A stretch of DNA of 64,000 nt from an uncultured cyanobacterium. GTDB lineage: Bacteria; Cyanobacteriota; Cyanobacteriia; Cyanobacteriales; CAWCAG01. Numbering within the stretch: the first letter of the stretch is position 1; each line of letters opens with the position of its first letter. The DNA lies in contig CAWCAG010000009.1 of the NCBI GenBank assembly GCA_963793425.1, forward strand, positions 448,001 through 512,000. Reading direction: 5' to 3'. The position numbers were made by a program. This document shows, one piece after another, positions 32,701 to 35,700 of this stretch.

Positions 32701-35700
32701 GATCATAAGTATTGCTTAATCTCCTAATTTATTAGTATTCGCCGCTAATTGAGGGAGTCCTTCCCTAGTAACCCGGCAAATTCTCCACTCTTCCATAATC
32801 GCAGCTCCTAAGCTTCTGTAAAAGGCGATCGCAGGTTGATTCCAATCTAAAACACTCCATTCTAAACGCCCTACATTCCTCTCCACTGCAAGTTTGGCGA
32901 CATAACTCAATAAGGCTTTACCAATACCTTGGCGGCGATAAGCAGGGAGAACAAAGATATCTTCTATATAAATACCTGGTTTTGTCAAAAAGGTTGAGTA
33001 GTTGGCAAAGAACAAAGCAAATCCAACCAGTTTCCCTTCCTCTTCAGCAACAATTGCTTCTGCATAAGGTTTTGCACCAAACAGATGCTCTTGGAGAGAT
33101 TCCGGAGTTCCTGTCACCAAATGGGAGAGTTTTTCGTAGGCGGCTAAAGCTTCAATTAAGCTAAAGAGAGTAGGAATATCTGCGGGAGTTGCCAGCCGAA
33201 TAAGCTTATCTGTCATTGAGATAGTAGTGGCGTGATACGCCTAAAATATTGCAATAGTAGGGGCGGGTTTGGAGTCAAATTGTGAGATCAATATTAAACT
33301 AAATAAACCCGCCCTAACACACAATTTTAGCTGGGTTAGGCTAATAGTTTTTAATAAAATAAAGATTGATTTTAAAATTTTAACTACAAACTATGTCGGA
33401 TTACCAACAACAAGTAATCAATTTTTTTAACAGAAGAAGTGCTTACGATGCAGAAGGGGATAAACATCCCAGAGAAGCCAAACTTTTGCTAGAATCAGTT
33501 CCTATTCTATCTGGACAAAAAATCCTTGATCTTGCCACTGGAACTGGCTTAGTAGCTATATCTGCCGCGAAAAAAGTTGCTGAAAAAGGTTCAGTAATTG
33601 GTGTTGATATGTCATCGGGTATGTTGGCTCAAGCTCAAAGCAAGATCGCCGCTGAGGGATTGAATAATATCGAATTGATTGAAGCGGACGTAGAGTCAAT
33701 TAATTTTGCAACAGAACAGTTTGATATTATCTTTTGCTGTTCTGCAATCACTTACTTTAGAGATATTCCGGCAATTCTTAATCAATGTTATCGCTGGCTC
33801 AAAACAGAAGGTTATTTGGCTTTCACTTGTCCTTATAAAACCTCTTATATGGCGCAAATAAAAGTCAGAATCTGCCAGGATTTATGGGGAATTGATTTAC
33901 CGCATATCAATAAACCTCTTTGGACTCCTGAACAATGCCGTTTTCTCTTACAAAAGTCTGGTTTTAAGGATATTGTAATTGAGCTTGAGCGCTCTGGGAA
34001 ATATGTCAATAACGATTATGTCTCTGCCTGGGATGGGCAAGATTTTTATCCGAGAGGCAATCCTTTATTAAATTTATCTTCACAACAAAGAGAGCTACTA
34101 CAGGCTGAGTATAAAAGCGCGATCGCAGAGTTAGTCACTGAACAAGGTGTTTGGCAAGATTCAAGTACTTTGTATGTTAAAGCCCGCAAGGGAAGTATTT
34201 AATTAACAAGGATTTATTTTTGAGAAATAGATTTAACTTCATGGAGTAAATTCTGCAGCAAGCATTTTGGATCATAGAGAATTCGACATCCATTATTAAC
34301 AACACGAAATGTCCCTATTTCTAAAGGGTTAATAGATGCCCAGGAAAGAAAGCCAAAACTAAACTCAATTTCTGTCTGATTTGTAAAGTAAATATGGCGT
34401 GACCAAACTACACCATAATTAATATCTTCCCAAGCTTTAATAGTTAAATCAAGATATTGCCAATCAATTTCCTTAATCCAGGTTTGGCTATTTTTAAATA
34501 TTAAAGGGTCTGGGGTCAAAAACATAAGGTCAATATCTGAATCAAACCTAAAATCCCCCTTGGCATAAGAACCAACTAATGCTAAAGCAATAATATTTAC
34601 ATCCATAGAAGCCCACTGAGTTACTTGTGCTAGTATCGGCTCTATTTTTTGCTGAAGAGATTGCATTACTTATACCATAATTGGATGGGTAATCAGCCAT
34701 GAAAAAAGCCCTAGAGTTAAAAAACTCCAGAGCTTAACCAGGGTGCATCTACCACTTCTTTATTACTTCCCTTTAAGCCTCATATCCGGAACACTTTGCC
34801 TAAATTCGAGAAAATTGCCTTTTACTCTGTCTACCACTAAATGTTAAATATTAAATGTTAAACCTTAAATAATATTCCATGGCCTCATCATCTTCTTTAC
34901 TCCCAGCAGTTTATATTATTGGTGCTGGTCCTGGCGATCCTGATTTATTAACTGTTAAAGCCCTAAAAATTTTGCAGCAGGCAGATATAATCTTAGTTGC
35001 GGATTCTTTGGTTCCCAAACAGATTTGGCAAGGTGTACGTCCTGATGTGGAGTTGGTACGTACTGGAAATAAAACCTTAGAAGAAATTTTACCTTTGATG
35101 ATTGAGGGAGTAAGAGCTAATCGTGTTGTGGTACGCTTGCACTCTGGGGATCTCAGTCTCTACAGTGCCATTCACGAACAAATGAATGCTTTAACAGAAG
35201 CAGGAATTCCTTTTGAATTAGTCCCAGGAATCAGCGCTTTTCAAGCCGCCGCAGCAAAACTACAAACGGAATTAACAGTACCGGACTTAGTACAGACAAT
35301 TATTTTAACCCGCATTAGTGGCCGTGCTTCTGCTGTACCAGAGTCAGAAGATTTAGCTTCTTTAGCAGCCCACAAAGGGAGTCTTTGCCTTTATCTGGCT
35401 GCCCGTCATGTCGAAGCGGCAGAAGAAAAGTTACTCCAGCATTATCCCCCAGATACCCCCGTAGCTATCTGTTTTCGTATAGGTTGGCCAGATGAAAAGA
35501 TATTTTTAGTTACTCTTGAGGAAATGGCTAAAGTTACTCAAGAAAAACAGTTAATTCGGACTACTCTTTATCTCATTAGTCCTGCTTTAAAAACAGATCA
35601 AAAAGTGCGATCCCAGCTTTATCATCCAGAACATTCTCATCTATTTCGTTCCCCTCAAGGGAGCGATATAGTATGACTAAGATTTTAAGTTTAGCTCTAA

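Follow-up and report, generated by a model that had tools for sequence, protein, structure and literature searches.

An NsiR1-family sRNA gene in a cyanobacterium lacking nitrogenase: twelve copies, two promoter classes and a predicted link to a HetR/sigma-HetZ circuit

What could a small RNA known for heterocyst-specific expression be doing in a cyanobacterium without nitrogenase? The question is raised by the window, the whole stretch of 64,000 nucleotides that we analysed, in which the survey's finding had placed an NsiR1 gene. This gene is preceded by TCCGGA at position -36 and ends in a terminator hairpin (Table 1), and it matches the family model RF02399 over model positions 1-60 with 50.0 bits (gathering score 39, E 7.4e-07). 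The RNA has a folding energy of -19.3 kcal/mol (z -3.08), with none of 200 shuffles folding equally well, and its 5' box, which is unpaired or weakly paired in the fold, presumably forms a single-stranded seed; the exact 14-mer of the box is present in many cyanobacterial genomes. The TCCGGA of the window copy is predicted to be the -35 element of a sigma-HetZ promoter, and the -10 region is predicted from the 16-17 bp spacing described in passages of PMC13342950 together with the consensus of the promoters termed class A below. A search for a sigma-70-type promoter near the window copy found none. The stretch occurs in four DNA sequencing runs from one sediment-metagenome study and in no listed RNA run.

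Table 1. Features of the NsiR1 gene and its surroundings, in window positions
Feature	Position	Strand	Basis and remarks
NsiR1-family sRNA gene, class A (DIF1 promoter)	34700..34754	-	RF02399 match and fold; sub-type with ...CCCUGGUUAAGCUCUGGAG 3' of the box
5' box UGGUAGAUGCACCCUGGU	34737..34754	-	Present in every one of the 12 NsiR1 copies (0-3 changes)
DIF1 motif TCCGGA	34785..34790	-	Direct reading; 36 nt 5' of the model start (34790-34785)
Candidate -10 region (AGTAATAAA)	34760..34768	-	17 nt past TCCGGA
Terminator hairpin	34706..34735	-	13 pairs, 4-nt loop, U run to ~34702; terminator scan and fold
Downstream neighbour, nucleotidyltransferase-domain ORF	34214..34666	-	Pfam NTP_transf_2, E 3e-07; context only
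Divergent neighbour, tetrapyrrole methylase ORF	34879..35676	+	Pfam TP_methylase, E 1.8e-50; context only

All eight copies that the survey had listed were located on their contigs, with scores of 39.3-50 bits: C5:303112-303169(+), C5:1706589-1706642(-), C7:66713-66768(-), C7:661214-661266(-), C9:482700-482754(-), C9:725072-725128(-), C9:909671-909721(+) and C9:1006364-1006421(+). The count of eight, however, has to be raised to 12 copies at nine loci, since three further true copies fall short of the cut-off (C7:661100-661154, 33.5 bits; C5:1627584-1627639, 28.8 bits; C5:302888-302942, 27.4 bits) and one is diverged, with its box at C5:1627313. Nor are the copies single and dispersed throughout, as had been stated, for at three of the nine loci two copies lie in tandem, 112, 224 and 324 nt apart. 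The shared 5' box stood, but the remark that one copy departs from it by two changes did not: C7:66713 has three changes and C7:661214 has one. TCCGGA lies at -36/-35 in five of the eight listed copies and TCCTGA takes its place in a sixth, in agreement with the earlier description, and the hexamer count of 611 in 5,284,537 bases was reproduced; the binomial P of about 3e-16 can be derived from that count but overstates the evidence, because the copies are paralogues. By promoter, the 12 copies fall into seven of class A, which carry DIF1 (TCCGGA in six, TCCTGA in one), and five of class B, which carry a palindrome without DIF1. This second conserved promoter, missed earlier, is found on the two above-threshold copies that lack DIF1 and on three others. 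Around the promoter motifs the flanks have diverged while the motifs stayed the same. The loci adjoin gcvT-, lgt-, TPM-, pentapeptide-, PALP- and glmU-like genes and porin genes, i.e., unrelated housekeeping genes, and at none of the loci does a hetF-like gene lie beside an NsiR1 copy; the hetF gene of the genome was not located.

The genome encodes HetR (548 bits, cut-off 489) and HetZ (634 bits, cut-off 550), both over the cut-off and both announced by the survey, as well as HetZ-related and HetZ-related-2 proteins. Directly upstream of hetR lies a patX-like ORF ending in ...ERGSGRFDTGPFQG, which is itself preceded by TCCGGA. The reported absence of nitrogenase was upheld: the best nifH match (215 bits) stays below the cut-off of 394, and no nifD was found at E<=1e-150 in this genome or in two other sampled members of its family. 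The HetP model likewise matched none of these three genomes. For comparison we used a family (f7) with the top RF02399 and HetR scores, tandem arrays, an interrupted nifD, nifD in 7/7 genomes and two to four HetP genes in each of the three genomes tested, which is a family with every hallmark of heterocyst formers. The present genome lies outside it, in line with its earlier placement outside the heterocyst-forming family. The host is best described as a filamentous-type cyanobacterium that lacks nitrogenase and HetP and keeps a HetR / sigma-HetZ / PatX core circuit.

According to passages of PMC13342950, HetZ is a sigma factor whose -35 element is DIF1: it reads T-35 C C G G A-30, a spacer of 16-17 bp separates this from the -10 region, and some substitution is tolerated at T-35, G-32 and A-30. 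The supplementary datasets of that paper contain 546 sigma-HetZ promoters. The sequence features of such promoters are all found at the window copy, namely TCCGGA, the spacer and a predicted -10 near the start, and a HetZ gene is present. Across 120 loci, comprising 177 box instances with full flanks, the positions of the motifs are fixed: TCCGGA occurs within 60 nt upstream of the box in 72 instances, in 72/72 at 36-38 nt, and a one-base variant stands at the same place in another 29 of the 177. The class B core GGGn5CCC lies 39-42 nt before the box in 38 of the 177, in 35 of them at exactly 40. Neither motif was found in 38 instances, 29 of which have no T run and come from non-cyanobacterial genomes. 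T runs 3' of the box are present in 149 of the 150 promoter-bearing instances versus 11 of the 38 others, and the median 3' fold energy is -15.9 kcal/mol versus -9.65 kcal/mol. The class A consensus 5' of the box reads ggAa.aaa.aAtt. Class A genes, including the window copy, would most likely be transcribed by RNA polymerase with sigma-HetZ or its paralogues. We found no paper stating that DIF1 is kept in nsiR1 genes outside heterocyst formers, in a literature search that covered sources other than the supplementary datasets of PMC13342950.

In the five copies of the genome without DIF1, the palindrome GGGGTnnnACCCCTCA covers the -35 region of an extended -10 promoter, TGnTATAnT, with its centre ~33-35 nt upstream of the start. 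The consensus of 40 unique class B promoters is GGGGT.tcaCCCCtCa, and all five promoters here contain a GGGnnnnnCCC inverted repeat resembling GAGGGGTCTAACCCCTC, which HetR binds; HetR crystal structures require GGGnnnnnCCC (passages of PMC4192349). Aligned letter by letter, class B GGGTGACACCCCTCA and hetP GGGTCTAACCCCTCA are equal at 12/15 positions, CTCA flank included, and as sequences they differ only in the free central bases. Direct control by HetR through GGGGTnnnACCCCTCA is the most likely regulation of class B, and, since the palindrome overlaps a promoter close to the sigma-70 consensus, repression is slightly more likely than activation. At the class B loci, Rfam families other than RF02399 gave no match, and RF02399 itself is mostly below the cut-off. 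The textbook regulatory link from HetR to hetZ is not visible here: the 640 nt preceding hetZ contain no GGGn5CCC. In other families, too, this core is seldom found ahead of hetZ, and under the strict pattern a HetR site precedes hetZ in only one of three f7 genomes, where it lies ~500 nt before the gene and at another spacing to any -10-like hexamer than in class B. The present genome also contains a perfect hetP-type site, GTGAGGGGTCTAACCCCTCAT, at C9:228368-228388; the ORF behind it matches no Pfam or NCBIfam family and resembles only unnamed cyanobacterial clusters. The other HetR-like palindromes that were examined adjoin PAS kinase, GTPase, gatB and ABC transporter genes, none of which is het-related.

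To see how the two promoters are distributed, we compared 151 genomes of the order. RF02399 matches were found in 87/87 HetR-positive genomes, 54 of which have no nifD, so that the genome is no special case; the matches extend over at least 22 of the 38 sampled family codes. Counted among relatives rather than as independent events, the class A pattern occurs in 78 genomes, with a HetZ-family gene in 78/78, and in 0/58 genomes without such a gene, and the class B pattern occurs in 76 genomes, 74 of them with HetR. The two class B genomes without a detected HetR (G009 and G038) are fragmented assemblies of 850 and 320 contigs, and the reversed-pattern controls gave 2 and 4 matches in total. Three HetR-positive genomes without HetZ have class B only, and six genomes of one family (f33) with a HetZ-like gene and no HetR have only DIF-variant copies and no class B; these two natural losses, each one lineage, agree with the proposed wiring. 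Exact-box copies with DIF are also present in non-heterocystous Trichodesmium, Lyngbya PCC 8106, Microcoleus, Geitlerinema, Nodosilinea and Leptolyngbya. The survey's worry that homologues outside heterocyst formers might already be in print was justified, as NsiR1 homologues are marked for 38 of the 89 genomes in Table S3 of Brenes-Alvarez et al. 2016 (PMC4734099), including 11 from non-heterocystous strains. A full-text literature search for the box sequence returned no paper, searches for NsiR1-like or NsiR1 homologue phrasing found none, and a search on NsiR2 gave nothing relevant.

We then considered which transcripts the RNAs may act on. The 5' box GUAGAUGCACCCUG(A/G)U, invariant in both classes, most likely acts as a base-pairing seed, with each RNA ending in its own terminator hairpin. 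The known Nostoc targets are inapplicable here because HetP-like genes are absent and no copy lies beside a hetF-like gene. The best candidate for a conserved target outside heterocyst formers is the motif (A/U)(C/U)(G/A)GGGUGC near the 5' end of the hetR leader, and pairing of the sRNA with this leader would close a feedback loop on HetR. In the present genome the predicted duplex between the motif and the box region has an energy of -22 to -23 kcal/mol, a value that only 0.14-1.7% of 708 random start regions equal. When one genome per family was taken, the box core reached <=-16.5 kcal/mol in 13/20 hetR upstream regions, a count that may reflect few independent events because the motif may be one inherited element; 300 shuffled cores reached this value in a mean of 0.67 and a maximum of 4 regions, and hetZ upstream regions, used as a control, in 3/18. 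In minimum-energy folds the motif lies opposite -25..+16 in 8/9 leaders. The idea that the sRNA opens the helix between motif and start region was rejected, as the duplexes are no stronger than those of 710 random start regions (0.07-0.53 at least as good). The best genome-wide matches to the first 18 nt of the RNA are the antisense strands of the NsiR1 genes themselves. These are followed by a coding-region site that recurs on C3 and C4, and by one within the early codons of a membrane protein of 1228 aa.

Three other explanations concern the genes as a whole. A chance origin of the matches, as spurious hits of a short covariance model, has next to no probability and is refuted for the 12 copies described here: the RF02399 model does have only 60 positions, and weak single matches (E ~1e-4) occur in HetR-less genomes, but the window copy reaches 50 bits, the copies share an identical 14-mer box with promoters and terminators in place, and 0/14 control genomes exceed the RF02399 cut-off, which supports the survey's view of true homologues. 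It is very improbable that the organism forms heterocysts or fixes nitrogen and that the genes were missed, even though the genome is a metagenome assembly with a completeness of 98.6%; the assembly consists of nine contigs and lacks nifH, nifD and HetP, nifD and HetP are missing from both family mates too, and f7 retains nifD in every genome and HetP in all three tested. Heterocyst loss is known for some members of the heterocystous clade. The missing nifH, nifD and HetP could also mean that the genes are decaying leftovers of a lost heterocyst programme with no present function, and Raphidiopsis brookii D9 (L106), which we take to be such a heterocyst-loss member, still carries an NsiR1 copy. 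We nevertheless consider decay improbable, because the twelve copies are intact, with a box that is identical or almost so, with terminators and with positioned promoters whose motifs are unchanged amid diverged flanks; a genus-mate (G027) likewise keeps both classes, with six class A and three class B copies, and the breadth of family codes and the 54 HetR-positive genomes without nifD point the same way.

The remaining alternatives bear on the regulator of class B and on the target. The class B palindrome could be a sigma-70 -35 hexamer (TGACAC) flanked by G/C, or could bind a regulator other than HetR, since the commonest palindrome centre, TGACA, sits 16-17 nt from TGnTATAnT and so makes a near-consensus housekeeping promoter; the HetR assignment is itself read from sequence, and a site of this kind is missing at hetZ of this genome. 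Such an origin is possible but on the whole unlikely, as the letters that are kept, namely the G and C arms and the TCA flank, coincide exactly with those of the hetP site in print (PMC4192349), and the centres vary (TGACA, TTACA, TTTGA, TATCA and TCTTG); moreover, the pattern follows HetR in 74/76 genomes and occurs in 0/6 genomes of the HetR-less family f33, where NsiR1 copies are present. For the target, the odds are only a little short of even that the hetR-leader motif is conserved for another reason, e.g., a protein site or the leader fold, with its complementarity to the box coincidental and the true targets elsewhere. Besides its possible inheritance as a single element, the motif is missing within 1.2 kb in 7/7 heterocystous f7 genomes and also in f5, f6, f22 and f30; box complementarity shows no genome-wide enrichment (681 matches, within the range of 297-1322 for five shuffled seeds), and other strong pairing sites exist, such as the first codons of the 1228-aa protein. 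On the other side, 0/300 shuffled cores reach even one third of the observed 13, the hetZ control stays at 3/18, the motif variants UCGGGGUGC and UUAGGGUGC both retain pairing by wobble pairs, and the flanks of the motif are not conserved. We retain the hetR leader as the best candidate and HetR as the most likely regulator of class B.

Taken with somewhat better than even confidence, our reading is that the window copy is one of 12 NsiR1-family genes and that this sRNA family would be the output, through two promoter classes, of the kept HetR / sigma-HetZ / PatX core circuit. The genes, their motifs, the fixed positions and the co-occurrence with hetR and hetZ are direct observations; the protein that would read each promoter, the sign of HetR control, the target and any expression we infer from sequence. 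As the family accompanies HetR in filamentous cyanobacteria generally, NsiR1 is probably part of an old cell-fate circuit predating heterocysts. It is tempting to speculate, although we regard this as doubtful, that an ancient two-branch output (HetR to class B, sigma-HetZ to class A) had the hetR leader as its ancestral target: should HetR repress class B, and should class B act on hetR mRNA in turn, the result would be a HetR-sRNA toggle, a protein-RNA switch with HetR-high and HetR-low states; in the heterocyst formers, the RNA would have been redirected to hetF and hetP-like genes at a later stage. The role of HetR, HetZ and PatX in filaments that never make heterocysts is called a mystery in passages of PMC11298460. 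The NsiR1 sRNAs are the most sharply conserved predicted outputs of the HetR/HetZ circuit in our analysis, with two promoter types that separately track the presence of HetZ and of HetR and a predicted pairing site in the hetR leader, and genetically tractable non-heterocystous strains make the proposed circuit testable. For genome annotation, NsiR1 and DIF1 are unusable as markers of heterocyst capacity.

NsiR1 of Nostoc/Anabaena sp. PCC 7120 (RF02399) has the same 14 starting letters (Table S3, PMC4734099), a length of ~55-60 nt with its own terminator, and several copies per genome, each with a TCCGGA promoter at -35 (passages of PMC9045159 and PMC4030482). In contrast to its 12-copy array beside hetF, the copies here occupy nine scattered loci, five of them use a non-DIF1 promoter, and the host has neither nitrogenase nor a HetP-like target gene. 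The copy antisense to the hetF leader, a feature of the tandem hetF array, has no counterpart here, nor does the trans repression of hetP-like alr3234, for which no HetP-family match was found, and heterocyst-specific expression cannot apply as such to this host. Many paralogues with one seed and diverged 3' parts also characterise the sibling sRNAs treated in the discussion of PMC9045159, and Nostoc NsiR1.1 and NsiR1.4 differ in their targets (PMC9045159); the siblings here would in addition differ in the regulator predicted to drive them, which we did not find described for NsiR1 in the sources covered. Class B shares the GGGnnnnnCCC core with the HetR-recognised hetP and hetZ promoters, but its site sits on the -35 region of an sRNA gene's extended -10 promoter. 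Similarly, the DIF1 promoters of patX, patS and hetR have TCCGGA at -35 and a purine-rich -10 ~17 nt on, whereas sRNA genes lie downstream here, and a DIF1 promoter of patX-hetR is known from Leptolyngbya BL0902, which has no nif genes and forms no heterocysts (passages of PMC11298460).

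A whole-genome search with the NsiR1 model RF02399 recovered, with identical scores, all eight copies that the survey had described as dispersed and single. The sequence observation was sound, though the copies had been undercounted and wrongly called single, as we found 12 copies at nine loci, three of which are tandem pairs with spacings of 112, 224 and 324 nt. Three further copies scored under the RF02399 cut-off (33.5, 28.8 and 27.4 bits) and have a terminator and the same box, i.e., the conserved 5' sequence and presumed seed, while the twelfth, diverged copy was found by a box search (box at C5:1627313). 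None of the nine loci has a hetF-like gene beside its NsiR1 copies, and all flanking genes are unrelated housekeeping genes. Seven copies (class A) carry the DIF promoter motif, TCCGGA in six and TCCTGA in one, 35-36 nt ahead of the model start. The other five (class B: C9:1006364, C5:303112, C5:302888, C5:1627584 and the diverged copy) are without DIF and show GGGGTGACACCCCTCA or a near variant, followed by TGnTATAnT. Some 230 nt past the diverged copy, GGGGTGATACCCC (C5:1627086-1627098; positions 7087-7099 of the fetched stretch L134) forms a third HetR-like palindrome, with no box after it.

The window copy matches RF02399 from end to end (50.0 bits; gathering score 39), and no other Rfam family exceeded its threshold anywhere in the 64-kb window. 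The predicted RNA has a fold energy of -19.3 kcal/mol (z -3.08), a promoter scan detected no sigma-70-type promoter near it, and neither neighbouring gene is related to differentiation. It belongs to the class A sub-type ...CCCUGGUUAAGCYCUrGAG..., which, together with the DIF promoter, also occurs among the matches listed in records of Nostoc, Calothrix, Trichormus, Raphidiopsis and Nostochopsis.

Features at the NsiR1 copy of the window (window positions)
Feature	Position	Strand	Remark
NsiR1 copy, UGGUAGAUGCACCCUGGUUAAGCUCUGGAGUUUUUUAACUCUAGGGCUUUUUUCA	34754-34700	-	RF02399 match
TCCGGA (DIF)	34790-34785	-	36 nt ahead of RF02399 model start
Terminator hairpin, 13 pairs, then T run	34735-34706	-	terminator scan
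Nucleotidyltransferase-domain ORF	34214-34666	-	neighbour of the copy
Tetrapyrrole methylase ORF, divergent	34879-35676	+	neighbour of the copy
14-nt unit TAAATGTTAAACAT, 2.4 repeats	34838-34870		divergent intergenic region, between NsiR1 promoter and tetrapyrrole methylase gene

In the assembly (5.28 Mb, 9 contigs, 98.6% complete) nifH was not found, the best match scoring 215 bits (cut-off 394), the level to be expected of ChlL. Neither this genome nor the two others sampled from its family (f1) gave a nifD match at E<=1e-150, and the HetP family had no match in all three, whereas in three genomes of family f7 the same HetP model found 2-4 genes each. We infer that f7 is a heterocystous family from its RF02399 scores, the highest of all (~70 bits), its long tandem arrays, its best HetR scores and the presence of nifD in 7/7 genomes, where the matches are truncated or interrupted. 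The failure to find nifH, nifD and HetP, together with the contrast to f7, supports the survey's view of an organism without nitrogenase that stands outside the heterocyst formers. HetR, HetZ, a HetZ-related protein and a HetZ-related-2 protein are present. A patX-like ORF of 71 codons (C5:352901-353116) directly precedes hetR (C5:353364-354263), ends in ...ERGSGRFDTGPFQG and has TCCGGA ~55 nt ahead of its own start, which is the patX arrangement; DIF1 ahead of patX in a nif-less Leptolyngbya is already described in a passage of PMC11298460.

Outside the window, a perfect candidate HetR site of the hetP type, GTGAGGGGTCTAACCCCTCAT, lies at C9:228368-228388 (L133:6369-6389), about 80 nt ahead of a 196-aa ORF that matches no Pfam or NCBIfam family and resembles only unnamed cyanobacterial protein clusters. 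An ~85-nt element containing two G/C hairpins (...attagttttattgGGGGACTAGCCCCccaaaccccccagtggggaaacaagtgtttcccc...), matched by no Rfam family, is repeated at C7:405658-406725, C9:49148-50774 and C1:274035-274968 with array periods of ~152, 203/407 and 311 nt, and occurs singly at window 47540-47620.

Across an order sample of 151 evenly drawn genomes (38 family codes, this genome included), the RNA family tracks HetR. RF02399 matched 103 genomes at E<=1e-3 and 94 above its cut-off; HetR was found in 87 genomes and nifD in 56, and all 87 HetR-positive genomes had an RF02399 match, 54 of them without nifD. The 16 genomes with a match and without HetR comprise six single weak matches (E ~1e-4), six members of family f33, three fragmented assemblies and one single good match. 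The survey's interpretation was right in substance, yet the case is general, not exceptional. At least 120 stretches of a species-representative collection contain the 14-letter box in exact form; most of those listed are cyanobacterial, and many belong to non-heterocystous filamentous genera. The matches listed include Trichodesmium erythraeum IMS101, Lyngbya sp. PCC 8106 (four in tandem), Microcoleus, Symploca, Symplocastrum, Geitlerinema, Roseofilum, Crinalium, Nodosilinea, Leptolyngbya, Phormidesmis and Planktothrix, all non-heterocystous genera.

NsiR1 is described as heterocyst-specific in reviews and primary papers, as found in heterocystous strains in a passage of PMC6596454, and as arranged in tandem near hetF in a passage of PMC4030482. 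Its occurrence outside heterocyst formers is not new, because Table S3 of PMC4734099 already records homologues for 38 of 89 genomes, of which 27 are heterocystous and 11 are not. Among the 11 are Trichodesmium IMS101, Arthrospira PCC 8005, Oscillatoria PCC 7112, 6506 and 6304, Microcoleus FGP-2 and Spirulina PCC 9445, the remaining four being placed by column count only. The part worth follow-up is the wider pattern, i.e., the tracking of HetR, two predicted regulator-specific promoter classes and the candidate hetR-leader site. The literature searched, which did not extend to the supplementary datasets of PMC13342950, contains no report of a DIF1 promoter kept at NsiR1 copies outside heterocyst formers; nor does it report a second NsiR1 class with a HetR-type site or a box match to the hetR leader, several key papers, among them Ionescu 2010, Mitschke 2011, Du 2012 and Videau 2014, lying outside its scope.

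The promoter architectures were counted over 177 box instances with full flanks in 120 listed stretches. Among these listed matches, TCCGGA precedes the box in 72 instances, always by 36-38 nt, a one-letter variant takes the same place in 29, and GGGn5CCC stands 39-42 nt ahead in 38 (35 at exactly 40). The other 38 listed instances have neither motif, and 29 of them, without a T run and from Bacteroidota, Proteobacteria and other phyla, are the chance background to be expected of a 14-mer. Among the matches listed, 149/150 promoter-bearing instances have a T run after the box, against 11/38 of those remaining. The class A consensus is aattt.TCCGGAt-N16-ggAa.aaa.aAtt-GGTAGATGCACCCTGA (85 unique sequences) and that of class B is taaGGGGT.tcaCCCCtCac.cc.aa..tG.tATA.T.TG.taa-GTAGATGCACCCTGA (40 unique sequences). 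The predicted class B RNAs share the conserved body ...GAUGRUnnGGAGAGCU-loop-GGCUCUCC-U run; they have no Rfam family of their own and match RF02399 mostly under its cut-off. Class B also occurs, among the matches listed, in heterocystous genomes, namely Scytonema sp. HK-05 (seven in tandem), Westiellopsis and Anabaena lutea.

Each class has a plausible regulator. According to passages of PMC13342950 (2026), region 4 of the ECF-like sigma factor HetZ recognises DIF1 (T-35 C C G G A-30), with 16-17 bp between the motif and the -10 region and with T-35, G-32 and A-30 partly replaceable, which the TCCTGA and TCCCGA variants fit; the hetZ and hetP promoters are directly activated by HetR. The strong HetR site of hetP is GAGGGGTCTAACCCCTC, with the structural requirement GGGnnnnnCCC (passage of PMC4192349), and class B GGGTGACACCCCTCA is identical to the hetP site GGGTCTAACCCCTCA in 12/15 letters, differing only in the free centre. 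In the order sample, the class A pattern (TCCGGA-N29-33-GTAGATGCA) was found in 78 of 151 genomes, 78/78 with a HetZ family member (reversed-pattern control, 2 hits), and the class B pattern (GGGn5CCC-N25-31-GTAGATGCA) in 76 of 151, 74/76 with HetR (control, 4 hits), the two HetR-less genomes being fragmented assemblies. Two natural losses are in line with these associations. In one genus of family f30 (G030, G061, G084), HetR and one class B copy are present, and neither a HetZ-family gene nor class A was found in 3/3 genomes. In f33 (G033, G063, G086, G106, G124, G141), a HetZ-like gene (~480 bits) is present, HetR was not found by two models, and the NsiR1 copies have only TCCCGA or TCCTGA at the DIF position, with the class B pattern in 0/6 genomes. 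This is good circumstantial evidence, not proof, that class A would be read via HetZ and class B via HetR, since the co-occurrence is among non-independent relatives and the losses are single lineages each. The RNA family is predicted to have two regulator-specific promoter classes.

The class B palindrome is centred ~33-35 nt ahead of the start, and its commonest centre, TGACA, is spaced from an extended -10 element as in sigma-70 promoters, so that repression by HetR is slightly favoured as the mode of control. Against repression, HetR acts as an activator at hetZ and hetP. A search of the 640 nt ahead of hetZ in this genome found no GGGn5CCC, which counts against a simple picture.

Neither of the known Nostoc NsiR1 targets fits this genome. 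A genome-wide complementarity scan with the box was uninformative on targets; among the circuit genes, the region ahead of hetR was conspicuous. Here UUCAUCGGGGUGCU, 116-103 nt ahead of the hetR start, is computed to pair with GCACCCUGAUGA (12 pairs, one wobble) at -22 to -23 kcal/mol, equalled by only 0.14-1.7% of 708 random start regions. The 16-nt box core reached -16.5 kcal/mol or lower in 13/20 hetR upstream regions (one genome per family), compared with a mean of 0.67 and a maximum of 4 for 300 shuffled cores, and in 3/18 hetZ upstream regions by the same test. In seven families the common motif, (A/U)(C/U)(G/A)GGGUGC, lies 104-146 nt ahead of the start, in an eighth 68 nt; in several families TATAAT ~20-25 nt ahead of the motif would put it close to the 5' end of the leader. 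These pairings suggest the hetR leader as a candidate NsiR1 target site. The motif may instead be one inherited element conserved for another reason, and its flanks are, TATAAT aside, unconserved. It is absent within 1.2 kb in 7/7 f7 genomes, and in four other families; for a target site in the hetR leader, its absence from f7 would explain why hetR has not been reported as a direct target in Nostoc. In a single family, f12 (G011, stretch L193), a strong box complement, ACAGGGGCAUCUACC (-22.7 kcal/mol), lies ~165 nt ahead of hetZ.
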